A DNA stretch of 64,000 nt from Chlorobiaceae bacterium (GCA_013334435.1 JAAXXP010000001.1:24892-88891), one strand, 5' to 3'. Positions 7,334-64,000 are shown, numbered from the stretch's first letter. Made by a program: numbers and translations. The notes: generated by a model not told the origin, from the letters alone.

Positions 7334-7338
7334 GGCGC

Positions 7339-17711: not shown

Positions 17712-17771
17712 GACAAAACAGCTCGACAGCCTTCGAAACCGGAAATCCTGCGTCGGCAGCCTTACTATAAT

Positions 17772-18188: not shown

Positions 18189-18247
18189 GGCGTAAAAAAG
18201 CGGAGTTGAGTAAACCGGGACCCCTCTACAGGCTTCTTATGAGAAAA

Positions 18248-20327: not shown

Positions 20328-20615
20328 GACAGGAATCCGCCCTGTGCACTACCTGTTGATTCGGTGTGGGTGCACTGTTGATAACAGGCGGGTTGCCAAC
20401 AGTGCGGTACGGCGAAAAAAATGAACCAACAATCGGCCAACAGCGCACCCCTCCGGCAACAAACAGGTTATCAACAGTCCGGAAGTGTGTGGAAAATTTT
20501 TTAACCTCCTGTATAAGAACGGGTTATTGTGAATTCCGTATGGGTTGTCAAGATTTCCACACTTACAACAATAACAACAATTTTTTTAAACATTATTAAA
20601 TAGTTAAAGAGTACG
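20328..20615. other. Second DnaA-box cluster plus AT-rich stretch in the dnaA-dnaN spacer
   Basis: TGTTGATTC at 20354, TGTTGATAA at 20376, TTATCAACA at 20468, TGTGGAAAA at 20488, ATTTCCACA at 20553. AT-rich at 20561-20612. Confidence 0.6.
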
Positions 20616-21743
20616 ATGATGCAATTTTCCTCAACCATAAGGCAGATGCAGGATGCGGTCAGTAAGGTGTCGCAGGCCATTCCGGCAAAAACCATCGATC
20701 CGCGCTATGACAACGTTCACCTGACCCTTGAAAACGGTCTGCTTACCCTGTTTGCCACAGACGGTGAACTTGCCATTACCGCAAAGTGCCCCGTAGAGAC
20801 TTCCGACACCGGAAACATCGGTATCAAGGCTAAAACCCTTCAGGATTTTCTCCGGAGCATGTACGATACCCCGGTCAGTTTTACCATCAACCGTCAGGAA
20901 ATAAGCGATCACGGTACGGTTTCCATTTCCACTGACAAGGGGCATTATAAAATCCCCTGTCTTTTCGAAAGCAAACCGGAAAAAACCGAAAAAACGTATG
21001 CAATAACGCTCGAACTGAAAACCGAGGAGCTCCAGGATCTTATTCAGAAAACCATTTTCGCCTGCAGTGTGGATGGAATGAGGCCGGCCATGATGGGTGT
21101 GCTTTTCGAGATCGAAGAGAACAGTATCACCGGAGTTTCAACTGACGGTCACCGGCTTGTCCGGTGCAGAAAGCCCATTACCGCGGAGATAGCGGAAAAG
21201 CAGAAAATCGTCGTTCCGGCCCGGGTACTCTCGATTATCCAGAAGCTTGCCCAGAACGACAGCGTTACCATGTCCATCGACGAAGACCGCCGTTCGGTAT
21301 GCTACAGCTGCGACAACGTCGTGCTTGAAGCCGCTCTTATCGTAGAGCCTTACCCTAACTACGAAGCGGTCATTCCTGTTGAGCACGACAAAAAGCTTGT
21401 TGCCCAGAGAACGGACATTTATGATTCGGTCCGGAGAGTCGGGCGTTTTTCAAGTATCGGAGATATCAAGATCGACGTCAACGGTGCGACGCTGAAAATA
21501 ATGGCTGAAAACACCAACGAAGGAGAATCCGCACAGGAGGAACTGACCTGCAATTATACAGGAGAACCTATTACAATCGGTTTCAACGCGAAATTCATTG
21601 AAGCCGCCCTTGCTCATATCGACCAGAGCGAAATCATCATAGAACTGAAAAGTCCAACGACGGCGGTCATTTTCAAGCCCGGTGCAGCAAAGGAGCAGGA
21701 AGAGCTGATTATACTGGTGATGCCGGTTCGCATCAATAATTGA
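20616..21743 (+). CDS. dnaN: DNA polymerase III beta sliding clamp
   Basis: 375 aa with the three-domain clamp pattern. Located downstream of dnaA. Confidence 0.95.
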
Positions 21744-21759
21744 GCGAAGAGGCAGGTTA

Positions 21760-22851
21760 TTGAAACTCGAACAGATACAGTTCGTCCATTTCAGGAATCA
21801 CGGTTCCCTGACCTTTGCTCCTTCCGGAGGTATCAACCTCATTTATGGTCCGAACGGTTCAGGGAAAACCTCGATTCTCGAAGGAATACATTACTGTGCG
21901 CTGACGAAGGGTTTCGTCAGCGCTTACGACATCGAGTGTCTGAAAGAGGGCCATCTTTTTTTTGTGCTCAAGGGCAGGTTTGCAAGTGAAAGCGGCACAG
22001 AAACAGAGGTAAAAGTCTCCTACAGCCGTCAGGCCGGCAAACAGCTGACGGTCAACACCCTGAATCTCGCGTCTTTTTCATCGCACATAGGTGCGATTCC
22101 CTGTATTACCTTTTCACCCTCCGAACTCTCGATTATAACCGGATCCCCTGCGGAGCGAAGGCGTTTTCTCGATAACGCGATCTGTCAGACCAACCGGAGG
22201 TATCTTGATGCCCTTCTCAGCTACCGGAGAATCCTGCAACAGCGTAATGCACTTCTGTTCCGGATAAGAGAGCATCGGTCGGGTATGGAGATGCTCGACA
22301 TTCTCACCGAACAGCTGGCAGAGCACGCAGTCTGCATCGTACGATCGAGAATGCAGTTCATAAGGGAGATTATGCCGGTAGCTGAAGCACATCTCGTAGC
22401 GGTTTCAGCCGGAGAAACGCCACGAATTGCCTATCGCTGTTCATTTCTTCCGCATGACTGCACCGAATCGTCCGATCAGCTTTCCAGGCTCTTTGAGGAG
22501 AGGATACGGGAAAAACGGCAGGAAGAGATCGCAAGGGCGCAGACGGCAATCGGACCGCACAGGGATGACCTGTTGTTTTTTCTTAATGAAAAAGAGGTTA
22601 AGAGATACGCATCGCAGGGTCAGAAAAGAAGTTTTCTCATTACCCTTAAACTTGCTCTCTATCGATATTTTCTTGAAAAACTCGATGAACAGCCTATCTG
22701 TCTTTTCGACGATCTGTTCAGTGAACTCGATCGCGAAAGGGTGGACAGCCTTCTCCTGCTGCTTTCCGGTTTCGGCCAAACCATCATTACGACGACGGAA
22801 AAAAGGAATACGCCGGGTGTTTCGGCACTCAATATTTGTGAAATAGCATGA
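21760..22851 (+). CDS. recF: DNA replication/repair protein RecF
   Basis: 363 aa, TTG start, Walker A GPNGSGKTSILE, signature SQGQKRS, and DDLFSELD. Confidence 0.93.
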   Translation: MKLEQIQFVHFRNHGSLTFAPSGGINLIYGPNGSGKTSILEGIHYCALTKGFVSAYDIECLKEGHLFFVLKGRFASESGTETEVKVSYSRQAGKQLTVNTLNLASFSSHIGAIPCITFSPSELSIITGSPAERRRFLDNAICQTNRRYLDALLSYRRILQQRNALLFRIREHRSGMEMLDILTEQLAEHAVCIVRSRMQFIREIMPVAEAHLVAVSAGETPRIAYRCSFLPHDCTESSDQLSRLFEERIREKRQEEIARAQTAIGPHRDDLLFFLNEKEVKRYASQGQKRSFLITLKLALYRYFLEKLDEQPICLFDDLFSELDRERVDSLLLLLSGFGQTIITTTEKRNTPGVSALNICEIA

Positions 22852-29173: not shown

Positions 29174-29217
29174 TTGCATCGGGCTCTGTTTTTTTATATA
29201 ATTATATAGTTATATAA
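29174..29217 (+). promoter_or_regulatory. Sigma70-like promoter of soyYZ-fccAB with overlapping 24-bp palindromic operator
   Basis: TTGCAT (29174-29179), a 17-nt spacer, then TATAAT (29197-29202). Operator TTATATAAT-tatata-GTTATATAA at 29194-29217. Confidence 0.65.
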
Positions 29218-29278
29218 AAAAACGTTTTCCGCAGCTGAGCAGGCTGATGCGACCCGCTCGTTCATTCCGGCACCAATT

Positions 29279-29716
29279 ATGAAGAGACGAACCTTTCTGG
29301 AGCGCAGTTCCGTTGCTGCCGCGCTTGTTCTGTTGCGGCCTTCCTCGCTTATGGCGGCATGGAACGAAAAACATTTTCAGCAGGTTTCCATCGATAAAGC
29401 GTTCCTTGACGTTCTCGGTACGAAAGACCTTGTCAAATCCGGCAGCATCACCATTGCGGCCCCTCCGGTTGCGTCCGACAGCTCTGCGGTTCCGGTTGAA
29501 ATCATCTCCGGAATCAGGGGCGATCAGCTCTATCTCTTCGTGGAAAGGAACGTTACGCCACTTGTCCTCAGCTGTGCCCTTCATGGCGGCGCTATCCCAT
29601 TTCTTGCTCTTACGGTCAAGATGAGGGAGAGTTCGCTGCTTTACGCCGTTATCAGGGAAGGCGGGAAATACCATATGGCCTCGGTGCATGTCGATGTAGC
29701 GGTTCAGGCCTGCTGA
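29279..29716 (+). CDS. soyY: SoxY-like sulfur carrier protein (SoyY of green sulfur bacteria)
   Basis: 145 aa with Tat signal MKRRTFLERSSVAAALVLL and a SoxY-like fold pattern. The C-terminus ends ...VAVQAC. Located immediately upstream of a SoxZ-like gene and fccAB. Confidence 0.75.
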   Translation: MKRRTFLERSSVAAALVLLRPSSLMAAWNEKHFQQVSIDKAFLDVLGTKDLVKSGSITIAAPPVASDSSAVPVEIISGIRGDQLYLFVERNVTPLVLSCALHGGAIPFLALTVKMRESSLLYAVIREGGKYHMASVHVDVAVQAC

Positions 29717-29741
29717 AATCACGTCCACAACATATGTCAAC

Positions 29742-30044
29742 GTGTTTATGAGAATACTCGCGAAAGAGGACGGGGGGATTGTCTCGCTCAAAGTCATCAT
29801 TCCGCATCCGAACGAATCGGGTACGAGAAAGGACGAGTCGGGAAACGTTGTTCCTGCCTATTACATCAGGGAAGGCTCTGTTTTGCTGAACGGTCTGCCG
29901 CTTATCGAGCTGCAGCTTGGCCCTTCGGTTTCCAGGGACCCTTTTCTGCAGTTCAGGTTTGCCGGTAAAAAAGGAGACCGGCTCAATTTGCGGTTCATCG
30001 ACAGCAGGAAGCAGGAATATGCCGCCGAAGCTGCGGTTGTCTGA
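29742..30044 (+). CDS. soyZ: SoxZ-like protein (SoyZ)
   Basis: 100 aa with the SoxZ-type pattern (KVIIPHPNESG...PAYYI). Paired with soyY. Confidence 0.75.
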   Translation: MFMRILAKEDGGIVSLKVIIPHPNESGTRKDESGNVVPAYYIREGSVLLNGLPLIELQLGPSVSRDPFLQFRFAGKKGDRLNLRFIDSRKQEYAAEAAVV

Positions 30045-30125
30045 TTCTCCGGCTGGATGACGTCAGGGTTACAAAGGTGTTATGTGCGCTTCTCTTTCTT
30101 AACAATCAACCAGGAGAAACATATT

Positions 30126-30482
30126 ATGCAGGTTACTATCAGATCGTTGCTGACGACCTGTTTCGTCTTTTCAGCTCTGCTTGGTGCTGGGGCTGAAGCT
30201 ACAGCGGCAACAACGCCGGCTCAGAAAGAGGTCGAATCGAACCCCCGGGGGCAGATTCTTTCTCTTTCCTGCTCTTCCTGTCACGGTACTGACGGAAAAA
30301 GCGCGGGAGTCATCCCCTCGTTTTACGGGAAGTCGCCCGAGTACCTTGAGACCGCATTGAAGGATTTCAAGACAGGCAAGCGGTATTCAACCGTTATGGG
30401 CAGGCATGCCAAAGGGTATACCGACGAAGAGATCCATTTGATTGCGCAGTATTTCGGAACGGTCTGGCAGAACAACAAATAA
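30126..30482 (+). CDS. fccA: Flavocytochrome c sulfide dehydrogenase, monoheme cytochrome c subunit
   Basis: Signal peptide, a single CSSCHG heme site, and RBS AGGAGA 9 nt upstream. Start moved from 30057. Confidence 0.85.
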
Positions 30483-30497
30483 GGGGGAGATGCAAAT

Positions 30498-31790
30498 ATG
30501 AGCCATAAAATTTCACGCAGGGATTTCAACAAGCTCCTGGTAACGGGAGTCGCCGGTTCCGCCCTCGGTATTTTCGGTACCATAAAGCCGGCATTTGCCG
30601 CACAGAAAAGGGTTGTCATTATCGGTGGCGGTTTTGGCGGTGCTTCGGCTGCCAAATACCTCAGGAAACTGGACCCTTCGATTGCCGTTACGCTTGTCGA
30701 GCCGAAAGCGACCTTCTATACCTGCCCGTTCAGCAACTGGGTGCTGGGAGGTCTGAGAACCATGGCCGATATCGGACAGACCTACACTGCCCTGAAAAGC
30801 AGGCACGGCGTCAATGTTCTGGTCGATTCCGCTACAGGTATCGATGCGGCCAAAGCTACGGTAACCCTGAAAAGTGGCAAGGTGCTTCATTACGACCGCC
30901 TCATCGTTTCACCCGGCATCGACTTCAAATGGAGTGCCATCGAAGGTTATAGCGAGGCTCTTTCGCGCACGAAAATGCCGCATGCCTATGAGGCCGGTTC
31001 CCAGACCATTCTCCTGCACAAACAGCTGCTTGCAATGAAAAACGGCGGCAGGGTCATTATCTGTCCTCCGGGCAACCCGTTCAGATGTCCTCCGGGACCC
31101 TACGAGAGGGCAAGCCTCATTGCTCATTACCTGAAAGCGAAGAAGCCGAAATCGAAAATTCTCATTCTCGATGCCAAAGAAAAGTTCTCCAAGCAGGGGC
31201 TTTTCAAGAAAGGATGGGATACGCTGTATCCCGGCATGATCGAATGGCGTTCAGGCCCGACCGGCGGAAAGGTTACGAAAGTTGACGCTGCTTCCATGAG
31301 CGTAACAACCGATTTCGGAGTGGAAAAGGGTGATGTCATCAATGTCATTCCTCCCCAGCAGGCAGGAAAGATCGCCTTCAAAGCCGGTCTGACCGATGCC
31401 TCCGGATGGTGTCCGGTCAATCCAAGCACCTTTGAATCGACGATTCATCCCGGTATTCATGTTATTGGCGACGCCTGTATCGCCGGCGCCATGCCGAAAT
31501 CGGGTTTTGCCGCCAGCAGTCAGGGCAAGGTTGCTGCCGCTTCGATCATCAGGCTGTTCCAGGGCAAGGAGCCTGCACCGCCCTCTCTGGTCAATACCTG
31601 CTACAGTCTGATCGGAACCGATTACGGTATTTCCGTTGCCGGAGTTTACAGTCTCAGCCCTACCGGCATTATCGAGGTTCCCGGATCCGGAGGACTTACA
31701 CCGATGGATGCCGATGCCGATCATCTCCGCGAGGAGGCGATGTTCGCTGAAGGCTGGTACAGGAACATTGCTCAGGACATCTGGGGATAA
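30498..31790 (+). CDS. fccB: Flavocytochrome c sulfide dehydrogenase, FAD-binding subunit
   Basis: 430 aa with Tat signal [10 protein letters not shown] and FAD fold [17 protein letters not shown]. Confidence 0.9.
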
Positions 31791-53574: not shown

Positions 53575-53698
53575 GTCATTCCGTCTCCTTCTTCGGTCGT
53601 TCAGCCTCGGGACGCGCCCTCAGGGTTCATCCTCGGATTTCCGTTCCGCTGGCGCCCCTTCTTTTTTTCCTTCCGTAGTTCGGATATTTTTATTATTT

Positions 53699-53722
53699 AT
53701 GTATAACTATATATTTATATAG
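53699..53722 (+). promoter_or_regulatory. Degenerate copy of the 24-bp palindromic operator, upstream of the FadL-type OMP gene
   Basis: ATGTATAAC-tatata-TTTATATAG, with 3 mismatches to TTATATAAY-N6-RTTATATAA. Located 160 nt upstream of the ATG at 53882. Confidence 0.45.
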
Positions 53723-53881
53723 CTTATTCTTCCTGTTCGCTCCTTTTCCCGTATACCCCGATGTACCGCATTTCGTCCCTCCTCTCCGGAGTGCCGTGCA
53801 TCCGCAATCCTCAGTCAGTTGCGCGGTAGCTGCGGGTTTTTGGCGCCTTTATCTGCATTAACCATGTAACCGCAACAGCGT

Positions 53882-55309
53882 ATGCATCAAAAAACAATTA
53901 GCGGGATGACGCTTCTGGCGCTCCTGTCAGCCACATCCACAGCTTTTGCCACGAACGGCATGAACCTCGAAGGGTACGGCGCGAAATCCCATGCGCTCGG
54001 CGGGACAAGCACGGCCTACGATACCGGGAATTCAGGGGTCACGAACAACCCGGCAACCCTTGGCCTGAGACAGGAGGGTTCTTCGGAACTCGGAGTCGGG
54101 ATCCGCGGCCTTCATCCGGACGTAAACCTTCAGACGCCGGGCATGATGGCCGGATCGGACGGGGACGCATATTACATGCCATCGCTCTCCTATATGCGCA
54201 AAGACGGAAAAATAACCTGGGGGTTTGCCGTTCTCGCTCAGGGTGGAATGGGTACGGAGTACGGCGAAAATTCCCCGATTTTCAGCAGAGGGAATTCCAT
54301 GGGGGGCAATCCAGGGGTTCCCCTGAGCGGTCAGGATATCCGCTCCGAGGTGGGAGTGGGACGCCTGATGTTTCCTGTGGCATATAACCTTACGGAAAAT
54401 ACCGTCATCGGAGCATCTCTGGATTTTCTCTGGGCGAGCATGGATCTGCGGATGGATATGGACGGAGCGCATTTCGGAGCCATGGCCATGCAGGGCCGAG
54501 GCGGTTCTGTGGGAGGATCGATGTTCAGTACGCTTGGCGGAATGATCGGTTCGGGTATGGTGAGCGATATCGACTATGTCCGCTACGACTTCTCCAACGA
54601 CAGTCCCTTTCTTGGTGACGCGACAGGTTACGGCACCGGGTTCAAGGTGGGTTTTACCCACCGGTTCAGCAAACTGCTTACGGTGGGAGGCAGCTATCAC
54701 TCGCAGACACGGATCTCCGATCTCGAAACCTCGAACGCCGTGCTCTCTTTTTCCGGAACAGGTGATGCGTTCAGCATGGCCAATCCCGTTTCGGTGAAAG
54801 GCACCATCAAGGTCCGCAATTTCGAGTGGCCGGCCACGTTCGCCGCGGGCGTAGCCCTCTACCCTGCAGAACGGTGGATGATTTCCGCCGACGTCAAGCA
54901 CATCGACTGGTCGTCGGTAATGGAGAAATTTTCAACGACCTTTATAGCCGACAACTCCGTTTCCAACGGGCCATTTGCCGGGCAGAAGCTCGATGTGGAG
55001 ATGCTGCAGAACTGGAAGGATCAGACGGTTTTTTCAGTTGGCGTTCAGTACAGGGCAACAGACAGGCTTGCTCTCAGGGGCGGTGCGAGTTTCGCTTCGA
55101 ACCCCGTACCCGATGCATGGCTCAATCCACTGTTTCCGGCCATCACCGAAAACCATTATACCGCCGGATTCGGCTACAGGGTTTCCGATCGCGCTTCGGT
55201 TTCGGCGGCCCTGGCCTGGGCTCCGGAGGTTACCCGAACAAATGCCGACGGTCTTGAAATCAGTCACGGCCAGCTCAACTGGTCACTGAATTATGCGCAT
55301 GAGCTGTAG
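53882..55309 (+). CDS. Outer-membrane transport protein, OMPP1/FadL/TodX family
   Basis: 475 aa with a signal peptide ending AFA, N-terminal NLEGYGAKSHALGGTSTAY typical of the FadL hatch region, and beta-strand periodicity throughout. Confidence 0.8.
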   Translation: MHQKTISGMTLLALLSATSTAFATNGMNLEGYGAKSHALGGTSTAYDTGNSGVTNNPATLGLRQEGSSELGVGIRGLHPDVNLQTPGMMAGSDGDAYYMPSLSYMRKDGKITWGFAVLAQGGMGTEYGENSPIFSRGNSMGGNPGVPLSGQDIRSEVGVGRLMFPVAYNLTENTVIGASLDFLWASMDLRMDMDGAHFGAMAMQGRGGSVGGSMFSTLGGMIGSGMVSDIDYVRYDFSNDSPFLGDATGYGTGFKVGFTHRFSKLLTVGGSYHSQTRISDLETSNAVLSFSGTGDAFSMANPVSVKGTIKVRNFEWPATFAAGVALYPAERWMISADVKHIDWSSVMEKFSTTFIADNSVSNGPFAGQKLDVEMLQNWKDQTVFSVGVQYRATDRLALRGGASFASNPVPDAWLNPLFPAITENHYTAGFGYRVSDRASVSAALAWAPEVTRTNADGLEISHGQLNWSLNYAHEL

Positions 55310-55375
55310 CGGGTCAGGGTGTTTTTCTGTTACCTTTCTTTACAGATACCTTCATCAACACCAGCAGCAGTAACA

Positions 55376-55582
55376 ATGGACTGCCGACACCCGGAGAACC
55401 TCGCCCGATGCAACTGCACCTGCGAACCGTGTCCCCGCAAGGGGATCTGCTGCGAGTGCATTGCCTATCACCGCTCGAAAGAGCAGCTTCCGGCATGCTG
55501 TTTCAGCCCGGAGGCGGAAAAAACATGGGATCGGAGCATCGTGAAGTTCATTGAAGACAGCCAGCGGAAAGTGCGCCCATGA
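55376..55582 (+). CDS. Small Cys-rich protein (9 Cys in 68 aa), function unknown
   Basis: [43 protein letters not shown]... I believe this matches a conserved uncharacterised family (DUF6485-like), but that is from memory only. No clear RBS. Confidence 0.5.
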
Positions 55583-55621
55583 GGCGTACTTTCCACTGGT
55601 GTGGCTTTTCCGGGGAAGCGC

Positions 55622-55834
55622 TCAGTTTTCGTCGAGCGTAAAACCGATTTTTACGGTAACCTGCCAGTAGGCGACTTTCTGGTTCTCGACGTGACAGCGG
55701 GTTTCGACAATTTCGACCCAGCGGATATTTCTTACCGATTCAGCGGCTTTTGCGACGGCATTTTTCACTGCATCCTCGATGCTGGTTTCCGAAGATCCGA
55801 CGATTTCAATTTTTTTATAGATATGAGCGCTCAT
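55622..55834 (-). CDS. Dodecin-family flavin-binding protein
   Basis: MSAHIYKKIEIVGSSETSIEDAVKNAV...WQVTVKIGFTL, the canonical dodecin pattern. The ORF maximum start at 55852 is also possible. Confidence 0.85.
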   Translation of the reverse strand: MSAHIYKKIEIVGSSETSIEDAVKNAVAKAAESVRNIRWVEIVETRCHVENQKVAYWQVTVKIGFTLDEN

Positions 55835-56070
55835 GGCTTGCGTGTTTTTCATGGTTGGTGATCCAGTCGTGCGGCTGCACTGCGTTATGCATTGACCCGC
55901 GTCAAGAAAGGAAAATAGGCTTCATCGGCGAAAAAAATCCCTTCCTGGGCTTTTTTTTTGAAAAACGGCACCCGAAGCTTCTCCGGAAGCAAGGGTTAAG
56001 TCATTGTTTGAAATGGGGGTAGTTGGTATAAGGGTCGTAATAAAAAAAGTTCCTGAAACACAGATTTAAT

Positions 56071-56127
56071 TTGGGAGTATGGGTACTGTGTATTATTATA
56101 TAACCATTCAGTTATATAATAATACAC
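56071..56127 (+). promoter_or_regulatory. Sigma70-like promoter with a perfect 40-bp palindromic operator, upstream of the Mo-oxidoreductase operon
   Basis: TTGGGA (56071-56076), a 17-nt spacer, then TATTAT (56094-56099). Palindrome GTGTATTATTATATAAC-cattca-GTTATATAATAATACAC at 56088-56127. Confidence 0.65.
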
Positions 56128-56376
56128 TTATTGGGCGCTCGCTCAGGGCGCACATACGGTGCGGTATGCCGGGCCCCCGTTCTCATCGGGATAGAGGAGG
56201 TCATGACACCGGTGATCCCTCAGGTGAAGGCGGTGAGTTATCCTGTAATGCCGGAAAAAAGTTGACGCATACCGCACTGGCGAATGCCGGCGGTGTGTCA
56301 TTAGGTCGGGGTGGAATCCTGCCGGAGATGCTTGCGGCATGTGGCCTCCTGCATGACCCTTAAGAGGAGAAGGTTC

Positions 56377-56502
56377 ATGTACGGGAGCGTATGCATGCCT
56401 TGCTGCATTACCACCCCGACCCTGATTTTTCAGAAGGCAGGGCTGCCTGCGGATGGGCCTGCCGGGTGGGTTCTCTCTCAATCAGACCAGATCAGTTCAT
56501 GA
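56377..56502 (+). CDS. Candidate 41-aa Cys/Met-rich small ORF, translationally coupled to psrBC
   Basis: RBS AAGAGGAGAAGG at 56362-56373. ATG 56377. Translation MYGSVCMPCCITTPTLIFQKAGLPADGPAGWVLSQSDQISS. Its TGA overlaps the ATG of the next gene (ATGA at 56499-56502). Confidence 0.45.
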   Translation: MYGSVCMPCCITTPTLIFQKAGLPADGPAGWVLSQSDQISS

Positions 56503-58052
56503 ACTACGGCTTTGTTATCGATGCCCGGAAATGTATCGGATGCCATGCATGCACGGTTGCCTGCAAGTCCGAAAACGAGGTTCCTCTCGGAGTGAACCGT
56601 ACCTGGGTGAAATATGTGGAAAAGGGCGCCTTCCCCGATACCCGGCGCTACTTTACCGTTTTGCGCTGCAACCACTGCGCCGAGCCGCCATGTGTGGCTA
56701 TCTGTCCTGTCGAGGCGCTGCAGAAACGTCCGGACGGCATCGTGGATTTCGACAGCCGCCGCTGCATAGGATGCAAGGCATGCGCCCAGGCCTGCCCTTA
56801 CAATGCGCTCTATATCGATCCCGATACCCATACCTCGGCAAAGTGCAACTACTGCGCCCATCGCAGGGAGGTTGGCCTCCAGCCGGCCTGCGTGGCGGTC
56901 TGTCCGCAGCAGGCAATCGTTTCGGGCGATCTCGATGATCCCTCAAGCAAAATCGCCACGCTGGTTGCCTGCGAACGTACCGTCGTGCGCAAGCCCGAGA
57001 AGGGGACTTCGCCCAAGCTGTTCTATATCAATGGCGACGGTGCGTCGCTCGATCCCATGGAGGCTCCCCTGCAGGAGGAATACCACTGGAGCGCCCAGTC
57101 GAGAGGCGTGGGTCATTTTGCCGGAAAGGGAAAAAGCGCACCGGGAATCGAAAAACCCGCCCATGCATCCGCCACGGCCGGCCCGAAAGCCCGCCGCGTT
57201 TATGATATTCCGTCGAAAGGCGCAGTCTGGGGCTGGGAGGTTCCGGCATATGTGACGGCCAAGGCGGTCTCGTCCGGAGTGTTTCTTGTTTTTGCCGCCC
57301 TGCTCGCCGTTTTCCGCATGGAGCTTGCCCCAACCCTGCAGTGGTCGGCCTGGGCGGTTTCGCTGCTTTTTCTGGCCCTTACCGGAGGCTTTCTCATCAA
57401 GGATCTCGATCGTCCCGACCGCTTTTCGTCGGTGATGCTGCGTCCGCAGTTCGGCTCATGGCTTGTCAGGGGCGGGCTTACCATTACCGGTTACGGTGCG
57501 TTTCTCGCCCTGTGGGGAGTATCGCATCTCCTGCAGATTCCCGCACTTGAAACCGCCGCGCTCTGGGGCGGCGCGCTTTTCGCCCTGGTGACGGCCATCT
57601 ATACGGCGTTTCTGTTCGGCGCCGCAAAAGGGCGCGATTTCTGGCAGAGCCCCATGCTGCTGCTGCATATGCTTCTGAACTCCCTGCTTGCCGGCGGCTC
57701 GGCCATGCTCCTGCTCGGGCTCGGCGCCGGAAGCCCGTCGGAACTTCTCGGGCTGCTCCGTCAGCTGCTGACGGCAGGCTTCGGGCTGCATATCGTCATC
57801 ATGCTGCTCGAACTGTACGGACAGCACCCTTCCGCAGGGGCTGAGCGCGCGGCGGAAATCATCCGTGAGGGGAGCCTGAAGAACCAGTTCTGGGCAGGCA
57901 GTTTTCTTGGCGGCAACCTGCTGCCCCTTCTCGTTACGCTTTTTTCATCCGATCCGCTGATGCTTGCCGCAGCGGCCCTTCTGGGACTGTGCGGTGTGTT
58001 CTACACGGAAAAAGTCTGGGTTCAGGCCCCGCAGAGAATTCCCTTAAGTTAA
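56499..58052 (+). CDS. Fused 4x[4Fe-4S] ferredoxin (PsrB/NrfC-like) plus NrfD/PsrC-like membrane anchor
   Basis: N-terminal Cys clusters CIGCHACTVAC, CNHCAEPPC, CIGCKACAQAC and CNYCAHR...CVAVCP. The C-terminal roughly 330 aa has about 8 hydrophobic helices. Start set at MNYGFVIDARKC (ORF maximum 56391). Confidence 0.85.
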   Translation: MNYGFVIDARKCIGCHACTVACKSENEVPLGVNRTWVKYVEKGAFPDTRRYFTVLRCNHCAEPPCVAICPVEALQKRPDGIVDFDSRRCIGCKACAQACPYNALYIDPDTHTSAKCNYCAHRREVGLQPACVAVCPQQAIVSGDLDDPSSKIATLVACERTVVRKPEKGTSPKLFYINGDGASLDPMEAPLQEEYHWSAQSRGVGHFAGKGKSAPGIEKPAHASATAGPKARRVYDIPSKGAVWGWEVPAYVTAKAVSSGVFLVFAALLAVFRMELAPTLQWSAWAVSLLFLALTGGFLIKDLDRPDRFSSVMLRPQFGSWLVRGGLTITGYGAFLALWGVSHLLQIPALETAALWGGALFALVTAIYTAFLFGAAKGRDFWQSPMLLLHMLLNSLLAGGSAMLLLGLGAGSPSELLGLLRQLLTAGFGLHIVIMLLELYGQHPSAGAERAAEIIREGSLKNQFWAGSFLGGNLLPLLVTLFSSDPLMLAAAALLGLCGVFYTEKVWVQAPQRIPLS

Positions 58053-58071
58053 CCATGTGCCGGAGTTTACC

Positions 58072-60933
58072 ATGAGCTATACCCATAAACCGACAGTCAT
58101 AGAGTCCATTGCTGAAAAGCTCCACCTTGTTCCCGATCTGCACCGGGAGGACGATGGCCCCAGGGCGCTTCGGGCCGCAGAAGAGGGCGCCGAGATAAGC
58201 TGCCCGCCTCCCGCACAGTGGGACAACTGGGTCGAATACGACTCGAAAAGCTGGCCCGAACGCAAGACGAAAGAGTACATGCTGGTGCCGACCGCCTGTT
58301 TCAACTGCGAAGCGGGGTGCGGACTTCTCGCCTATGTCGACAAGGAGACCATGGAGATCCGCAAACTGACCGGCAACCCCTATCATCCGGCCAGCCGCGG
58401 CAGGAACTGCGCCAAGGGCCCGGCAACGCTCAACCAGATTCAGGATACCGACAGGGTGCTCTATCCCATGAAACGCGCAGGAAAGCGAGGCGACGGCAAA
58501 TGGGAACGGGTCAGCTGGGACAGCGTCCTCGACGATATCGCCGGACGGATGCGCAAGGCAATCATGGAGGGCCGCAACAACGAAATCTCCTACCATGTAG
58601 GACGTCCGGGACACGACGGGTTCATGGAGTGGGTGCTGCGGGCGTGGAACGTAGACGGCCACAACAGCCATACCAACGTCTGCTCTTCGGGAGCGCGTTT
58701 CGGTTACGCCATATGGGAAGGGTTCGACCGTCCCTCTCCCGATCATGCCAACGCGAAATTCATTCTTCTGGTCAGCGCCCATCTTGAATCGGGCCACTAT
58801 TTCAACCCGCATTCCCAGCGCATCATCGAGGCCCGCATGAAAGGTGCGAAGCTGGCCGTGCTCGACCCCAGGCTTTCCAATACCGCAAGCATGTCCGATT
58901 ACTGGATGCCGAGCTATCCAGGCAGCGAGCCGGCCATCCTGCTCGCCATGGCGAAGGTGATCATCGACGAAGGGCTCTACAACCGGACCTATCTGGAAAA
59001 CTGGGTGAACTGGCAGGAGTATCTCCAGGCGGAATATCCCGGAACCCCGGTGACCTTCGAAAATTTCATCGAGGCGCTGAAAAAGGAGTACGCCCACTAC
59101 ACCCCCGAATACGCTTCGAAAGAGAGCGGCGTGGACGCATCCATGATCGTCGAGGTCGCCCGCAGGATCGGCGAGGCGGGCTCGCAGTTCTCCACCCATG
59201 TCTGGCGCAGCGCCAGCAGCGGCAATCTCGGCGGCTGGGCCGTGTCGCGCACGCTGCACTTTCTGAACGTGCTGACCGGCAGCGTCGGAACGCCTGGAGG
59301 CACCTCTCCGAGCGCATGGAACAAGTTCAAGCCTCATGTGCATGCCGAACCCAAACCGCAGACCTTCTGGAATCCGCTCCATCTGCCCGACGAATATCCG
59401 CTCGCGCACTTCGAGATGAGTTTCCTGCTCCCCCATTTCCTCAAGGAGGGACGGGGCAAGCTCGATGTTTATTTCACCAGGGTGTTCAACCCGGTATGGA
59501 CCTATCCCGACGGCTTCTCGTGGATCGAGGCGCTGGAGGACGAATCGAAAATCGGCCTGCACGCCGCGCTCACGCCAACGTGGAGCGAGACCGCCTATTT
59601 TGCCGACTATGTGCTGCCGATGGGCCACTCGGCCGAACGGCACGACCTGCTCAGCTACGAAACCCACGCAGGCAAATGGCTCGCTTTCCGCCAGCCGGTG
59701 CTGCGCACTGCCCTGAGAAGAATGGGCAAACCGGTGACCCACACCTGGGAGGCCAACCCCGGCGAAGTCTGGGAAGAGGATGAATTCTGGATCGAACTGA
59801 CCTGGCGCATCGACCCCGACGGCAGCCTCGGCATCCGCCAGTACTGCATGTCTCCCTACAGGCCGGGAGAGAAAATAACCATCGATGAGTATTACCGCTA
59901 TATCTTCGAGCATACGGCAGGCCTTCCGGAGAAGGCGGCAGCCGAAGGGCTCACTCCGTTCGACTACATGCAGAAATACGGTGCGTTCGAGGTCGAAAGC
60001 AACGTCTACAACGTGAACGAAAAAGCCGTGCCTCAGGCCGATCTCGACGGCGCTTCGGTGGAGCCGCAGAGCGGGCTGATCGTCAAGAACGGCAAGGCCG
60101 TGGGCGTGGAGGTTGCCGGTCGTTCCTGTACCGGGTTTCCCACCCCTTCGAAAAAGCAGGAGTTCTACTCCGGCACCATGGTCGACTGGAAGTGGCCGGA
60201 ATACCGCCTGCCGGGCTACATCAGGAGCCACATCCATGAGGAGACCATGGACCACAAAAACGGAGAGTTCGTGCTGGTGCCGACCTTCCGCCTGCCGGTA
60301 CTGATCCACTCCCGCTCGGGCAACGCCAAATGGCTTGCCGAAATCGCCCACCGCAATCCCGTCTGGATCAACGCTACCGACGGAGCGGCGCTCGGCATCG
60401 CCAACGGCGACCTGATCAGGGTGAACACCGACATCGGCTTTTTCGTGAACCGCGCCTGGGTGACCGAAGGGATACGTCCGGGAGTGGTCGCCTGTTCCCA
60501 CCACATCGGACGGTGGCGCCGCGAACAGGACCCCGAAGGCAACCGCTGGGCCGCCAACAAGGTCAACATCTCCAGAGAGGGGGACGGCAAATGGAAGATG
60601 CGCGTCGAAGAGAACATCCAGCCATACGAGAGCAGCGATGCAGACTCGTCGAGAATTTTCTGGTCTGACGGCGGCGTTCATCAGAACATCACCTTCCCGG
60701 TGCACCCCGACCCGATCAGCGGCATGCACTGCTGGCATCAGAAGGTGCGCATCGAGAAGGCGCACGATGACGACCGGTATGGCGACGTGTTTGTCGATAC
60801 CGACCGTTCATTCCAGATTTACAGGGAGTGGCTCGCCATGACGAGGCCGGCTCCCGGTCCCGGCGGCCTGCGCCGTCCGCTCTGGCTCAACCGCCCGTTC
60901 AGGCCCGACGAGAAAACCTACTATATCGCCTAG
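58072..60933 (+). CDS. Molybdopterin (bis-MGD) oxidoreductase catalytic subunit, PsrA-like, without Tat signal
   Basis: About 953 aa with N-terminal Fe-S motif CFNCEAGCG...C and the Mo-oxidoreductase pattern throughout. No RRxF signal peptide. GGAG 6 nt upstream of ATG 58072; the ORF track starts at GTG 58057. Confidence 0.88.
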   Translation: MSYTHKPTVIESIAEKLHLVPDLHREDDGPRALRAAEEGAEISCPPPAQWDNWVEYDSKSWPERKTKEYMLVPTACFNCEAGCGLLAYVDKETMEIRKLTGNPYHPASRGRNCAKGPATLNQIQDTDRVLYPMKRAGKRGDGKWERVSWDSVLDDIAGRMRKAIMEGRNNEISYHVGRPGHDGFMEWVLRAWNVDGHNSHTNVCSSGARFGYAIWEGFDRPSPDHANAKFILLVSAHLESGHYFNPHSQRIIEARMKGAKLAVLDPRLSNTASMSDYWMPSYPGSEPAILLAMAKVIIDEGLYNRTYLENWVNWQEYLQAEYPGTPVTFENFIEALKKEYAHYTPEYASKESGVDASMIVEVARRIGEAGSQFSTHVWRSASSGNLGGWAVSRTLHFLNVLTGSVGTPGGTSPSAWNKFKPHVHAEPKPQTFWNPLHLPDEYPLAHFEMSFLLPHFLKEGRGKLDVYFTRVFNPVWTYPDGFSWIEALEDESKIGLHAALTPTWSETAYFADYVLPMGHSAERHDLLSYETHAGKWLAFRQPVLRTALRRMGKPVTHTWEANPGEVWEEDEFWIELTWRIDPDGSLGIRQYCMSPYRPGEKITIDEYYRYIFEHTAGLPEKAAAEGLTPFDYMQKYGAFEVESNVYNVNEKAVPQADLDGASVEPQSGLIVKNGKAVGVEVAGRSCTGFPTPSKKQEFYSGTMVDWKWPEYRLPGYIRSHIHEETMDHKNGEFVLVPTFRLPVLIHSRSGNAKWLAEIAHRNPVWINATDGAALGIANGDLIRVNTDIGFFVNRAWVTEGIRPGVVACSHHIGRWRREQDPEGNRWAANKVNISREGDGKWKMRVEENIQPYESSDADSSRIFWSDGGVHQNITFPVHPDPISGMHCWHQKVRIEKAHDDDRYGDVFVDTDRSFQIYREWLAMTRPAPGPGGLRRPLWLNRPFRPDEKTYYIA

Positions 60934-61032
60934 TTTCTGAAAAGAACAGACCCCCTTGACGCCTGTCTGCCGGTAATACCCTGCCGGCAGATACGGTCGA
61001 TATCAATCCATCAATCCTTTGACGCATGGCAC

Positions 61033-61989
61033 ATGACAAGAGTGGACGGTAAAAAAATCTGGTGGTTCCTTGCAGCCGTTCTGCTGACAGCCATGCCGCT
61101 TGTCCTTGCTCCGGAAGCCGCAGCCGCATCGTTACCGGCAGGCGGCGAAACCTCATGGTGGATCTGGGTACTGCTGCTTTTCATCTTTTCATTTTTTCTC
61201 GGCATAGTTTCCGTTCTTGCCGGCGTGGGCGGCGGGGTGCTTTTTGTGCCTATTGTCAGCAGCTTCTTTCCTTTCCATCTCGATTTCGTTCGCGGTGCCG
61301 GGCTCCTGGTCGCGCTTTCCGGCGCTCTTTCGGCAGGCCCCTCACTGCTGAGAAAAGGGCTTGCCGATCTGAAGCTCAGCCTTCCGCTCTCCCTTATTGG
61401 ATCCATCAGCTCCGTTGCAGGAGCGATTGTCGGACTCAGGATGTCCGCCGACAGTGTGCAGCTTTTGCTTGGCATAGCGATCATCGCCATTGCGGTGATC
61501 ATGATGAAAGCCGGAAAATCCGGTTATCCTGAAGTCGGAGAGTCCGATGTGATCGCCAGGGCACTGGGCATTTCCGGCAGCTATTATGAACCGACTATCG
61601 ACAAAACCATCAACTGGAAGGTGCATCGGACGCCTCTGGGGCTGGTGCTCTTTTTCTTTATCGGTTTTATCGGGGGCATGTTCGGCATGGGCGCCGGCTG
61701 GGCCAACGTGCCGGTGCTCAATCTCCTCATGGGAGCGCCCCTCAAGATTGCCGTTGCGACAAGTGGGCTGGTTCTCTCGATGAACGGCGCGGCAGCTGCA
61801 TGGATCTATATCTATAAAGGAGCCGTTCTTCCCCTGATCGCAGTTCCCGCAGTCGGCGGCGTGATGCTCGGTTCGAAGATCGGTGCCAGAATTCTCTCGA
61901 AAGTCAACACCGGTTCGGTTCGCATCATTGTGATCATCATGATGGTCATTGCCGGTCTTCGTTCAATAACAAAAGGATTGGGATTATGA
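61033..61989 (+). CDS. TauE/SafE (DUF81) family anion exporter, sulfite-exporter-like
   Basis: 318 aa with about 8 TM segments in two homologous halves carrying Gly-rich motifs (GVGGGVLFVP and GMGAGWANVP). Confidence 0.8.
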   Translation: MTRVDGKKIWWFLAAVLLTAMPLVLAPEAAAASLPAGGETSWWIWVLLLFIFSFFLGIVSVLAGVGGGVLFVPIVSSFFPFHLDFVRGAGLLVALSGALSAGPSLLRKGLADLKLSLPLSLIGSISSVAGAIVGLRMSADSVQLLLGIAIIAIAVIMMKAGKSGYPEVGESDVIARALGISGSYYEPTIDKTINWKVHRTPLGLVLFFFIGFIGGMFGMGAGWANVPVLNLLMGAPLKIAVATSGLVLSMNGAAAAWIYIYKGAVLPLIAVPAVGGVMLGSKIGARILSKVNTGSVRIIVIIMMVIAGLRSITKGLGL

Positions 61990-62405
61990 GCAACACAGAC
62001 GGTCAGCATAAACCTGAGATCGACAGGGCGCAGCTTGTCTATGCCGCCGTTCTCGACGTCGTTTCGCATACCGGTATGGTGCTGATCGCCGCAGGTTTTC
62101 TCTCCTATGTTTTAAGGCTGCTGCCGCTTACGGTTTCCGTCGAAGCGGTCGCCTCCCACTGGCATCTCAGGGCAAGTGAAATGAATCACGTCCTTTCGGT
62201 GCCCTCAGGCTGGTCATGGGTGCAGGATCCCCTGCACGGAGATGTACTCAGCTTCATATCAATTATCTTTCTTTCGATGGCGGCCATGATCTGTCTTGTT
62301 GCCGTCATTCCTGTTTTTTTCGCCGGGAAGAACAGGAGTTATGCCCTCATTGCCCTGCTTCAGGTTCTTGTGCTTGTCGCTGCCGTTGTCGGCATAGCTT
62401 CCTGA
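61986..62405 (+). CDS. Small 3-4 TM membrane protein, DUF1634-like partner of TauE
   Basis: 139 aa with an ATGA overlap with the TauE stop. The DUF81-DUF1634 pairing is a common arrangement. Family is assigned mainly by context. Confidence 0.5.
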   Translation: MSNTDGQHKPEIDRAQLVYAAVLDVVSHTGMVLIAAGFLSYVLRLLPLTVSVEAVASHWHLRASEMNHVLSVPSGWSWVQDPLHGDVLSFISIIFLSMAAMICLVAVIPVFFAGKNRSYALIALLQVLVLVAAVVGIAS

Positions 62406-62447
62406 GAACATTGAGCGTCGATAGCCGGAAAAAATCGCAGGGAATCC

Positions 62448-62499
62448 TTGTTTCTTTCCTCGCTATTATTTATAATTATATAATTGTCTGGTTATATAG
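62448..62499 (+). promoter_or_regulatory. Sigma70-like promoter of the tusA operon with adjoining 24-bp palindromic operator
   Basis: TTGTTT (62448-62453), a 17-nt spacer, then TATAAT (62471-62476). Operator TTATATAAT-tgtctg-GTTATATAG at 62476-62499. Confidence 0.65.
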
Positions 62500-62568
62500 T
62501 TTTATTTGTTGCGGCAATATCGCAACCGCTTACCCCGAAACAACATACTTAACTTCAAGGAGGCATCA

Positions 62569-62805
62569 ATGTCTGAAATAACTGCCAACCGTACGCTCGA
62601 TTGCTCCGGGATGAACTGCCCGCTGCCGATCCTGAAGACCAAGAAAGAGGTCGATCAGATGCAGAGCGGTGAAATTCTGAAAATGATCTCGACGGATTCC
62701 GGTTCGGCAAACGACATGACTTCGTGGGCGAACAGAACGGGACACAAAATCGTCGGCAGCAGCACCGAAGGCGGAACCTATACTTTCTACATCCAGAAAT
62801 CCTGA
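62569..62805 (+). CDS. tusA: TusA/SirA-family sulfur carrier protein
   Basis: 78 aa. LDCSGMNCPLPILKTKK (CPxP active site). RBS AAGGAGG 6 nt upstream. The ORF track starts earlier, at 62506. Confidence 0.88.
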   Translation: MSEITANRTLDCSGMNCPLPILKTKKEVDQMQSGEILKMISTDSGSANDMTSWANRTGHKIVGSSTEGGTYTFYIQKS

Positions 62806-62821
62806 CCGGGAGAAAACCACT

Positions 62822-63331
62822 ATGGCCGACACAAAAAAACTTGCCATCATCGCCTCCAAAGGCACGCTCGACTGGGCCTATCCTCCATTCATCCTCGCTT
62901 CGGCGGCGGCGGCCATGGATATGGAAGCGGTGCTCTTTTTTACCTTTTACGGTCTTCCGCTGCTGAAAAAAGAGATCGATCTCAAGGTCACTCCTGTCGG
63001 CAATCCGGCAATGCCGATGAAAATGCCGTTCGGCAGCAAGGAGTTCCAGGGCTTCGACTGGCCCATTCCCAATATCATTTCCGGCAACGTTCCCGGATTC
63101 GACACCATGGCCACCATGCTCATGAAGGAAACCTTCAAGAAGAAAGGTGTGGCCACCATCGAGCAGCTTCGCGAGATGTGCCAGGAGAGCGGCGTCCGCT
63201 TCATCGCCTGCCAGATGACCATGGATGTTTTCGGTTTCGAACGCAAGGATTTCATTGACGGCGTCGAGTACGGCGGTGCGGCAATGTTTCTTGAGTACGC
63301 CGCCGATGCGAACATGTCCCTGTTTATCTGA
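62822..63331 (+). CDS. DsrE/DsrF-like family protein (DsrE2/DsrE3-type, DrsE_2-like)
   Basis: 169 aa. KLAIIASKGTLDWAYPPFILASAAAAMDMEAVLFFTFYG and the conserved-Cys region RFIACQMTMDVFG. Located directly downstream of tusA. Confidence 0.75.
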   Translation: MADTKKLAIIASKGTLDWAYPPFILASAAAAMDMEAVLFFTFYGLPLLKKEIDLKVTPVGNPAMPMKMPFGSKEFQGFDWPIPNIISGNVPGFDTMATMLMKETFKKKGVATIEQLREMCQESGVRFIACQMTMDVFGFERKDFIDGVEYGGAAMFLEYAADANMSLFI

Positions 63332-63428
63332 GCTTTTCTGATTCCGGTTTTCACTTCTGCCGGCAGGCTTTTGGCCGATTCCGGCATTTTTATCCGTCAT
63401 GTAACGTTTTCTGCAGGGAGTTTATCCT

Positions 63429-64000
63429 ATGAAAATAGCGATCAGCGGAAAAGGAGGCGTCGGAAAAACCACCATCAGCTCCATGATAGCTCTTGGTCTT
63501 GCCGTGCGGGGAAAAACGGTGCTTGCCATCGATGCAGATCCCAACGGCAGCCTTGCGGAGGCGCTCGGCTGCGACCAGGAAAAAAACGGGAGGATAACGC
63601 CGCTTATCGAGCAGAAACAGCTTATCGAAGAGCGCACCGGCTCCAGGCCGGGGGATATGGGCGGATATTTCGTACTCAACCCCAGAGTCGACGATCTCGT
63701 CGAAAAATTTTCCATAGAGGTTAACGGCATACGGGTGATCGTGATGGGGGGGCTGAAAGAGGCTCTCAGCGGATGCTACTGTTCCGAAAACGCGCTCCTG
63801 CGATCGTTTCTCAGGCATCTGATGGTCGAGAGGGATGAATGGGTGATTCTCGATATGGAAGCAGGATTCGAGCATCTGACCAGAGGAACGGCTCAGTCGG
63901 TTGACCTGCTGCTCATTGTGGTGGAACCCGGCAGCCGTTCGATCAGCACGGCAAAAAAACTGACCGCTCTTGCCCGTCAGGCCGGTATACCTGACATCGG
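63429..64000 (+). CDS. CooC-type MinD/ParA-class P-loop ATPase; partial, continues beyond the window end
   Basis: Manual translation: MKIAISGKGGVGKTTISSMIALGLAVRGKTVLAIDADPNGSLAEALG...LSGCYCSENALLRSFL...LDMEAGFEHLTRG. Deviant Walker A plus a CxC motif, as in CooC Ni-insertases. Missing from the ORF track because there is no stop in the window. Confidence 0.75.
   Translation, partial: MKIAISGKGGVGKTTISSMIALGLAVRGKTVLAIDADPNGSLAEALGCDQEKNGRITPLIEQKQLIEERTGSRPGDMGGYFVLNPRVDDLVEKFSIEVNGIRVIVMGGLKEALSGCYCSENALLRSFLRHLMVERDEWVILDMEAGFEHLTRGTAQSVDLLLIVVEPGSRSISTAKKLTALARQAGIPDI

Follow-up and report, generated by a model that had tools for sequence, protein, structure and literature searches.

Which proteins bring elemental sulfur (S0) into green sulfur bacteria? 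A 2021 review states that no S0 uptake enzymes are known in Chlorobiaceae. The question is raised here by a stretch of 64,000 nucleotides (nt) from a Chlorobiaceae bacterium (GCA_013334435.1, JAAXXP010000001.1:24892-88891), which is termed the window at its full length. From position 53,699 to its end, a block of genes encodes a FadL-type outer-membrane channel (fadL), a Cys-rich protein, dodecin, a PsrA-like molybdoenzyme with a fused membrane anchor (psrA and psrBC), a TauE/SafE-family exporter with a small partner (tauE-small), the sulfur carriers TusA and DsrE2, and a CooC-type ATPase (cooC). An earlier note had listed these genes and suggested that they could form one pathway of sulfur import, conversion and export under a shared operator. 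The open reading frames (ORFs) of the window were read and then scanned against Pfam and NCBIfam, and all ten genes of the block are found in the order that the note had given (Table 1).

On balance, the block probably belongs to the regulon for sulfur oxidation in a green sulfur bacterium of the Chlorobium type and works by the mechanism proposed below. It is a variant of a known regulon that is built from known families. Two observations are new relative to the literature searched. The operator extends to the molybdoenzyme-tauE genes and to tusA-dsrE2, of which no mention was found there, and the linkage of fadL with tusA and dsrE2, at times with a molybdenum enzyme, crosses phyla, which no paper found there notes. 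Functional assignments that go beyond family membership are drawn from gene context and from the literature, and are to be read as such.

A recurrent gene ensemble

Among the matches listed, those closest to the block are Chlorobium limicola-type contigs (PsrA 95%, FadL 83-84%) and a metagenome-assembled genome (MAG) of Chlorobiota (91%; locus L001 in the numbering used for all comparison loci). The order trx-pckG-fadL-dodecin(-)-psrBC-psrA-tauE-small-(tusA)-dsrE2-recQ(-) is found in the Chl. limicola-type contigs and in Prosthecochloris aestuarii DSM 271. In the ten Chlorobiota-type psrA loci listed, psrA is followed by tauE-small in nine, and dsrE2 is present in nine and tusA in seven; fadL adjoins in four, or five counting the window. 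The TauE/SafE gene also adjoins the PsrA gene in Halomicrococcus. In several Chlorobium the block runs directly into dsrN-dsrCABL, and the molybdoenzyme itself adjoins these dsr genes in L002, L005 and L089.

The site is modular, and its contig variants include fadL-CysRich-dodecin-dsrE2-cooC, fadL-tauE-small-dsrE2-rhd-tusA-dsrC and fadL-dodecin-tauE-small. In Chlorobaculum (Cba.) limnaeum (L084), fadL-dodecin still stands beside pckG and the molybdoenzyme genes lie elsewhere; dodecin stays beside fadL even there. Of the relatives, just L102, L108 and L115 have a homolog of the Cys-rich DUF6485 protein in the corresponding slot, and it is absent from L001-L006, L081 and L085. The DsrE2-CooC pair recurs in L001, L108, L115 and L117. 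The Cys-rich protein and CooC were rejected as core parts of the module, because each is found in a minority of relatives.

The synteny of the whole block, which the earlier note had put forward for checking, is conserved in Chlorobium and Prosthecochloris but broken in Chlorobaculum, that is, in C. tepidum and Cba. limnaeum. The block genes of C. tepidum are scattered (CT0494-6, CT0742-3 and CT2230). The genes form a real, recurrent ensemble.

One palindrome before three promoter regions

The palindrome that precedes these genes has the consensus ATTATATAAY-N6-GTTATATAGT and occurs in exactly four copies in the 64-kb window. A search for TATAAY-N6-RTTATA with at most one mismatch returns four matches (29197, 53702, 56099 and 62479) versus 0.08 expected in the window. 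Three of the four copies lie inside the block, as had been claimed, and the fourth stands upstream of soxY-soxZ-fccA-fccB. These four genes form one cluster behind it, and no further sox genes lie close by. A weight matrix that was trained solely on sites from other genomes (threshold 20 bits, 20 local shuffles as control) scores the four window sites at 28.7-39.3 bits and has 0 matches in the 20 shuffles. The other matches of at least 20 bits in the window, at 29185 (21.8) and 62483 (20.8), overlap the sites at 29193 and 62475 with an offset of 8 nt. The consensus of 28 distinct sites from 12 genomes/contigs is ATTATATAAY-TAT(A/T)TA-GTTATATAG.

The block comprises three promoter regions, each of which has the palindrome: fadL with the DUF6485 gene, dodecin divergent from psrBC-psrA-tauE-small, and tusA-dsrE2-cooC. 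The genes psrBC-psrA-tauE-small probably form one operon, because the gap between psrA and tauE is 100 nt and contains no strong terminator.

The positions of the operator are kept among relatives. The copy before fadL is found in L081 (9785), L085 (6000), L102, L108, L113, L117 and L154, and in a weaker form in Cba. limnaeum L084 (9554); the genomes that have it thus named comprise the Chl. limicola-type contigs, P. aestuarii DSM 271 and seven metagenome contigs. The copy between dodecin and psrBC is kept in L001, L004, L005, L081, L085, L089, L109, L113, L117 and L154, and the copy before tusA-dsrE2 in L001, L005, L081, L085, L109, L113, L117 and L154. All three positions are kept in the Chl. 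limicola-type contigs, P. aestuarii DSM 271, L113, L117 and L154. Additionally, the palindrome precedes dsrC in Chlorobium sp. N1 (L005), L002 and L089, and Cba. limnaeum L084 has an operator-like site at 17376 before fccAB alone. Taken by target, the positions before fadL, psrBC, tusA/dsrE2, dsrC and fccAB are kept from Chlorobium to Prosthecochloris. Outside green sulfur bacteria, matches of at least 25 bits number 0 in 584 kb of fadL loci and 5 in 1.3 Mb of psrA loci; the motif is specific to Chlorobiaceae.

The molybdoenzyme PSRLC3 and the order of steps

The PsrA-like enzyme had been described as cytoplasm-facing, and this description holds, because neither of its subunits has a twin-arginine (RR) motif for Tat export or a hydrophobic N-terminus. 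By sequence, the enzyme is assigned to the polysulfide-reductase-like complex 3 (PSRLC3) of green sulfur bacteria. Its ortholog in C. tepidum, CT0494-0496, likewise combines a Tat-less catalytic subunit with a fused PsrB-PsrC, and only the promoter and the neighbouring genes differ in the window. The catalytic subunit is 78% identical to that of P. aestuarii DSM 271 and 95% to that of a Chl. limicola-type contig. It reaches no NCBIfam equivalog; the models for Dms, Phs, Arr and Ttr match it below threshold. Of the solved structures, ArrA and PsrA/PhsA come nearest, with matches that span the N-terminal half only, and plasmid records label the enzyme 'molybdopterin-dependent oxidoreductase'. 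Membership in the respiratory PsrABC/PhsABC enzymes was ruled out, as the twin-arginine motif is missing and the PhsA model scores 180 bits against a cut-off of 694.

The family is widespread. Among the matches listed, identity is 65-72% in Bacteroidota, KSB1, Calditrichota, Acidobacteriota and Planctomycetota, and 53-62% in Thermomicrobium, Rhodococcus and haloarchaea (haloarchaea 53-58%). Where the flanks permit checking, the fused iron-sulfur (FeS)/NrfD gene is nearly always upstream of the catalytic gene. The neighbours in the 74 non-Chlorobi loci listed (L007-L080) are a SulP sulfate permease in 36, an MBL+rhodanese protein of the persulfide-dioxygenase-like type in 30, a rhodanese in 17 and an SQR-like flavoprotein in 13, along with YeeE/YedE-type genes and genes for the molybdenum cofactor (Moco). 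The gene order is rhodanese-TauE-BC-A-MobA-anion permease in Halomicrococcus and MBL-ArsR-...-DsrE2-like-TusA-BC-A-Mrp/NBP35 on pRHL3 of Rhodococcus jostii, and a CsoR-type regulator stands in front of the PSRLC3-type genes of Thermomicrobium. Regulators of the persulfide-sensor type are among the PSRLC3 neighbours in this set of three.

An ATPase of the Mrp/NBP35 type comes right after the PSRLC3-type enzyme in L092 (R. jostii RHA1 pRHL3, 4600-10956) and in L093 (Natrinema, 5176-11195). Its place parallels that of CooC after dsrE2 in the window, which suggests, by analogy, a dedicated maturation factor.

In L087 (GCA_028277445.1, 1-20337), psrBC-psrA-tauE-small-tusA-dsrE2 is directly flanked by an sHdr-ETF-DsrE3-LbpA cluster and by lipoate-assembly genes, which code for a radical SAM and an LplA-like protein. 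The module would therefore be of use in sulfur oxidation of the sHdr type and not of the Dsr type alone.

Sulfite is the product that Dsr, sHdr and persulfide dioxygenase alike deliver into the cytoplasm. Because the neighbours of PSRLC3 are such sulfite producers, the enzyme is read as a sulfite oxidase. Most likely, it would convert sulfite to sulfate and pass the electrons to menaquinone, after which the product would leave via TauE (via SulP elsewhere). In the literature, too, PSRLC3 is inferred to oxidise sulfite in the cytoplasm. SoeABC, the sulfite:quinone oxidoreductase that has been characterised on this side of the membrane, is always found together with dsr or shdr, and PSRLC3 co-occurs with Dsr or sHdr in the same manner. 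Like SoeABC of Allochromatium vinosum (Dahl et al. 2013), PSRLC3 has a cytoplasm-facing molybdopterin enzyme, an FeS subunit and a haem-free quinone anchor, and in Sulfuritalea-like loci SoeABC-like genes are linked to tusA-dsrE2-fadL, as PSRLC3 is here. Unlike in SoeABC, the B and C subunits of PSRLC3 are fused and the anchor is of the NrfD type and not of the DmsC type. The catalytic subunit shares only 22% identity with what is probably the SoeA of a Sulfuritalea MAG (L179), an assignment that draws on the taxon, the subunit sizes and the DmsC anchor. Filing the enzyme as SoeA was rejected on this value, and the sulfite-oxidase role is by analogy and not by orthology for the same reason: PSRLC3 would at best be a functional analogue of SoeABC, not a member of its family.

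The molybdoenzyme might instead act on carrier-bound sulfur, such as a persulfide or thiosulfonate delivered by TusA/DsrE2 as its dedicated carriers, and not on free sulfite, which we consider unlikely. TusA and/or DsrE2 adjoin PSRLC3 in all ten Chlorobiota-type loci listed (DsrE2 in nine, TusA in seven) and on R. jostii pRHL3. They also adjoin the non-orthologous soeABC-like enzyme in L103, L132, L167 and L179, and DsrE3A/TusA carry thiosulfonate in Metallosphaera according to the literature. The 74 Bacteroidota-type and other non-Chlorobi loci listed, however, carry the enzyme without TusA/DsrE2 within 10 kb, and the two carriers occur with fadL where the enzyme is absent.

The carriers themselves belong to a known relay. 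In A. vinosum, sulfur is passed from Rhd via TusA and DsrEFH to DsrC (Stockdreher et al. 2014, as summarised in PMC11094781). The window TusA and DsrE2 are of the same families as those of the rhd-tusA-dsrE2 relay of A. vinosum; unlike there, the window has no rhodanese, and a CooC-type ATPase follows dsrE2. The full dsrE2-rhd-tusA set is present in L002, L005, L109, L120 and L154, several of which then continue with dsrN-dsrC.

In the linear route of the earlier note, the outer-membrane protein imports S8/polysulfide, the PsrA-like enzyme converts it, TusA/DsrE relay the sulfur and TauE exports the product. This route is improbable. It draws on the contiguity of the genes and their common operator, on the distant relationship of the enzyme to polysulfide/thiosulfate reductases, and on the recurrence of a molybdoenzyme with tusA, dsrE2 and fadL in Sulfuritalea-like loci. 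It omits Dsr, though, which adjoins the block in several Chlorobium and is required for globule oxidation according to Holkenbrink et al. 2011, and in C. tepidum psrABC falls on S0. Its order of steps is probably wrong as well, because the neighbours of PSRLC3 elsewhere, namely sulfite producers (Dsr, sHdr, persulfide-dioxygenase-like proteins) and sulfate/anion permeases or exporters (SulP, TauE), fit the last step of a pathway. PSRLC3 most plausibly acts after the TusA/DsrE2-to-Dsr steps and not before them.

The FadL-type channel

The channel matches PF03349 with 103.1 bits (cut-off 29.7), and its nearest solved structure in a PDB sequence search is TbuX (E 1e-54). In Foldseek, an AlphaFold2 model (pLDDT 85) aligns to TodX with TM-scores of 0.79/0.91 and a root mean square deviation of 3.2 Å at 28% identity; the TM-score against Escherichia coli FadL is about 0.64. 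In 35 aligned sequences, N56 and P57 of the NPA hatch motif are invariant and A58 is nearly so. Sequence and predicted fold place the channel in the TodX/TbuX/CymD subfamily, whose cargo is small hydrophobic molecules without charge. Like the members of this subfamily, the window channel is predicted to form a 14-stranded barrel with an N-terminal hatch and the NPA motif. Unlike them, it sits among genes of sulfur oxidation and not of hydrocarbon degradation.

Outside green sulfur bacteria, homologs of 44-50% identity come from Magnetococcus and from one MAG each of Ectothiorhodospira and Gammaproteobacteria. A survey of fadL loci from outside this group, made by look-ups and a metagenome scan, gathers 71 loci, of which 27 have enough flank on both sides; the metagenome loci carry no taxonomy. 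In 12 of the 27, tusA and/or dsrE2 lie within 2.5 kb of fadL, and in eight both do (relatives 40-50% identical). Usually the three genes run in one direction as tusA-dsrE2-fadL, 13-190 nt apart. Further genes in the surroundings are soxAXB (L096), soxYZ with a putative soxB for which there is N-terminal sequence only (L142), RuBisCO (L097), and putative fccAB together with dsrC (L141). In L103, L132 and L167 the order is soeABC-like-tusA-dsrE2-fadL followed by a gene for a secreted protein of about 300 aa (P300), and the Sulfuritalea MAG L179 shares this operon, in which its FadL belongs to another subfamily.

These tusA-dsrE2-fadL loci give independent comparative support to the ensemble and to a sulfur-related role of the channel. 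The grouping appears to have been assembled at least twice, from non-orthologous enzymes. In green sulfur bacteria it would combine a sulfide-responsive operator with a PSRLC3-type enzyme, and in Betaproteobacteria-like oxidisers it would be an operon of soeABC-like-tusA-dsrE2-fadL with a DUF302-like gene.

The secreted protein of about 300 aa often follows fadL (L165 9596-10501, L179 9001-9912, L103 4871-5794, L136 9450-10328), and in Sulfuritalea/Rhodocyclales-like loci it trails FadL genes of two subfamilies. It has more than 4800 homologs; the Pfam scan gives no match for it, and some homologs carry a precomputed DUF302 flag.

The channel could also be an ordinary one for hydrophobic organics (lipids, aromatics, quinones or pigments), with the spot beside pckG being merely an insertion hot spot. 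Its closest solved relatives carry toluene or cymene, public annotation names it an 'aromatic hydrocarbon degradation protein', and fadL remains at pckG where PSRLC3 lies elsewhere. Gene content at the site differs greatly from genome to genome, and the Ectothiorhodospira homolog has no sulfur-gene neighbours. We nevertheless hold this reading to be distinctly doubtful: in many genomes the fadL promoter has the same operator as dsrC, sox and psrBC, CT2231-CT2230 are repressed by sulfide in published data, and tusA-dsrE2-fadL recur in operon-like order in unrelated bacteria. As for a channel that carries hydrophobic sulfur, which the earlier note had suggested, its sulfur-related role gains support from the operons outside green sulfur bacteria, but the idea itself had already been put forward as a hypothesis in 2017. 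Repression by sulfide speaks more for uptake while S0 is being used than for export while globules form.

The palindrome and the PSOS-2 regulon

Hilzinger et al. 2017 (bioRxiv 10.1101/172254) report that the motif PSOS-2 overlaps the core promoters of sox, dsrC and CT2231-CT2230 in all Chlorobiaceae, and that, compared with S0 and thiosulfate, sulfide represses its regulon. They also propose that CT2230, a FadL-family protein, moves hydrophobic sulfur chains. The window palindrome is likely PSOS-2, because the same gene classes stand downstream of it (sox, dsrC and fadL/CT2230). The window fadL, which adjoins pckG, is the positional ortholog of CT2230, and in Cba. limnaeum a 41-aa ORF occupies the CT2231 slot beside the pckG-linked fadL.

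As in the PSOS-2 regulon, the palindrome precedes sox genes (soxYZ in the window), dsrC and homologs of CT2230. Unlike in that regulon, it also precedes PSRLC3-tauE and tusA-dsrE2, both here and in Chlorobium and Prosthecochloris. In C. tepidum, PSOS-2 is found at CT2230, a CRP-like motif at psrABC (CT0496-0494) and PSOS-1 at the tauE pair CT0742-0743.

That the palindrome is a mere AT-rich core promoter and not a regulator-binding site is very improbable: it is largely TATA-type sequence and overlaps a -10-like box (the site at 56095 adjoins a -35/-10-like pair), but the 28 distinct sites share a dyad symmetry in which positions 3-9 pair with 18-24 in 79-100% of sites, a fixed spacing and conserved G/C flanks (AAC...GTT), the motif is absent at 20 bits or more from the housekeeping promoters of the window (dnaA, atpD, pckG and others), and two tandem copies stand before dsrC in L005.

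Two further loci have operator-like sites. At 16147-21090 of L001, cooC is followed by such a site (25-27 bits), then by genes for an ABC transporter of the NMT1 type, whose binding protein has a Tat signal and which includes two ATPases, and for a dihaem cytochrome c; this transporter region may be a further member of the regulon, and its counterpart would fall past the window end. At 5036-6503 of L006, a Chlorobiaceae MAG, a gene for an SQR-type flavoprotein has an operator-like site, and the order is sqr-fadL-psrBC-psrA.

Proposed mechanism

The mechanism proposed for the block starts, following the literature, with a putative dimeric repressor that would sit on the palindrome, which probably overlaps the promoter, in the presence of sulfide and leave it once sulfide is exhausted. 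Subsequently, the TodX/FadL-type channel would let uncharged hydrophobic sulfur (S8 and organic polysulfanes from the globules) diffuse through the outer membrane. In the cytoplasm, persulfide sulfur would be handed on as in A. vinosum, here suggested by gene context, via Rhd/TusA/DsrE2 to DsrEFH and DsrC, and would be released as sulfite by reverse DsrAB. Judged by its neighbours, the cytoplasm-facing PSRLC3 would then oxidise the sulfite to sulfate and deliver the electrons to menaquinone through the fused FeS/NrfD subunit, and the oxyanion would be exported by TauE together with its small partner. CooC might, more tentatively, act as a maturation factor for a metal centre.

Several points weigh against this mechanism. 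At the level of the locus, fadL is not at this position in L001, L002, L003 and L004, and gene context does not establish the cargo and direction of the channel. No regulator gene is found near the operator sites in the window or in related loci; apart from a distant ROK-family protein, the remaining window genes are those of housekeeping functions and of the replication origin. The match of the palindrome to PSOS-2 is by location and not by the sequence of the published logo. As to the enzyme, the distance of the catalytic subunit from the probable SoeA has been given above, and no characterised member of the PSRLC3 family was found in the literature searched. Qmo/Apr mutants of C. tepidum reportedly accumulate sulfite, which would mean that PSRLC3 is insufficient there. 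The three units of C. tepidum are located at separate loci with three different motifs. Co-expression on S0, which the earlier note had named as a check, is not borne out by the published transcriptome of this species: psrABC rises on sulfide and falls on S0, and tauE shows no differential expression. These expression data argue against one universally co-expressed module.

A wider proposal is made tentatively. The TodX/FadL subfamily might be an entry route for S0 (S8/polysulfane) that is coupled to TusA/DsrE2 and a quinone-linked molybdoenzyme, in a module that would have come together separately in green sulfur bacteria and Betaproteobacteria-like oxidisers. PSRLC3 might then be a second family of cytoplasmic dehydrogenases for sulfite or carrier-bound sulfur. 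This is possible, though we rate it with more doubt than confidence.

Further features of the block and the window

The coordinates of the block genes and of the four operator copies are given in Table 1. The DUF6485 protein has 11 Cys in its ORF and 10 when counted from Met20, the probable start (55376). The 139-aa membrane protein is the small, DUF1634-like partner of TauE, together with which it corresponds to the C. tepidum pair CT0742-CT0743; its P. aestuarii ortholog gives a weak DUF1634 match. The ATPase is of the CooC type, as had been proposed. Its full-length ortholog from L001 (86% identical) has CooC1 (3kje) as the nearest solved relative over the full length (E 2.7e-46; next best 1e-12, with MinD/ArsA far behind), and the window copy contains a CXC motif (GCYC). 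It is accessory and probably a maturation factor.

Table 1. Genes of the block and operator copies in the window (positions counted from its first nucleotide).
Feature	Coordinates	Strand	Evidence or remark
Fourth operator copy, 61 nt upstream of soxY-soxZ-fccA-fccB (29279-31790, +)	29193-29218		pattern search and weight matrix
Operator copy before fadL	53698-53723		TATGTATAACTATATATTTATATAGC
FadL/TodX/TbuX-type outer-membrane channel, Sec signal peptide, NPA hatch motif	53882-55309	+	PF03349, E 1.6e-29
Cys-rich DUF6485 protein	55319-55582	+	Pfam, 26.1 bits (cut-off 24)
Dodecin	55622-55852	-	NF043052, 112 bits (cut-off 75); divergent from psrBC
Operator copy between dodecin and psrBC	56095-56120		in perfect 15-bp inverted repeat GTATTATTATATAAC/GTTATATAATAATAC
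Fused FeS (PsrB-like) and NrfD/PsrC-like quinone-anchor subunit, PsrBC	56499-58052	+	Pfam Fer4_11 and NrfD, single ORF
Molybdopterin catalytic subunit, PsrA-like, 958 aa	58057-60933	+	Pfam Molybdopterin domains
TauE/SafE-family anion exporter (predicted)	61033-61989	+	PF01925, E 2e-39, 135.9 bits (cut-off 32.6)
139-aa membrane protein, four membrane-spanning segments	61986-62405	+	hydropathy scan; start overlaps tauE end by 4 nt
Operator copy before tusA-dsrE2	62475-62500		pattern search
TusA sulfur carrier	62569-62805	+	PF01206, 90.7 bits (cut-off 28.6); NCPLP at residues 16-20
DsrE2 sulfur carrier	62822-63331	+	equivalog NF047629, 221.3 bits (cut-off 210); PDB 2qs7, 3pnx
CooC-type P-loop ATPase, cut by window end	63429-64000	+	Pfam; full-length L001 ortholog

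Between the operator and the start codon of psrBC lies an unusually long (379 nt), GC-rich leader (56121-56498), in which gene callers put short, probably spurious ORFs. The leader is weakly conserved (68% to L081). A Moco or other riboswitch in it was ruled out, as there is no match to an Rfam family. The sole Rfam match in the block is a sub-threshold suhB on the pckG terminator.

The window covers the region around the replication origin in a green sulfur bacterium. The genes rnpA, yidD, yidC, dnaA, dnaN and recF are located at 15659-22851, the window also holds gyrB, atpD and pckG, and the GC content falls to about 0.48 between 18 and 28 kb. The gene dnaA lies about 35 kb from the sulfur island, and the corresponding block of P. 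aestuarii DSM 271 is found at 51-74 kb of its genome.

Implications for sulfur oxidation

The FadL-type candidate for S0 uptake is not new, as it was named in 2017 (Hilzinger et al.). What is added here is that in Chlorobium and Prosthecochloris fadL is joined by one shared operator to PSRLC3-tauE, tusA-dsrE2, dsr and soxYZ-fccAB, and that relatives of the channel occur in operons with tusA-dsrE2, at times with soeABC-like genes, in unrelated sulfur oxidisers. Additionally, attention is drawn to the PSRLC3-type enzyme, which is very widespread and highly conserved and whose neighbours are sulfite-producing pathways and anion exporters.

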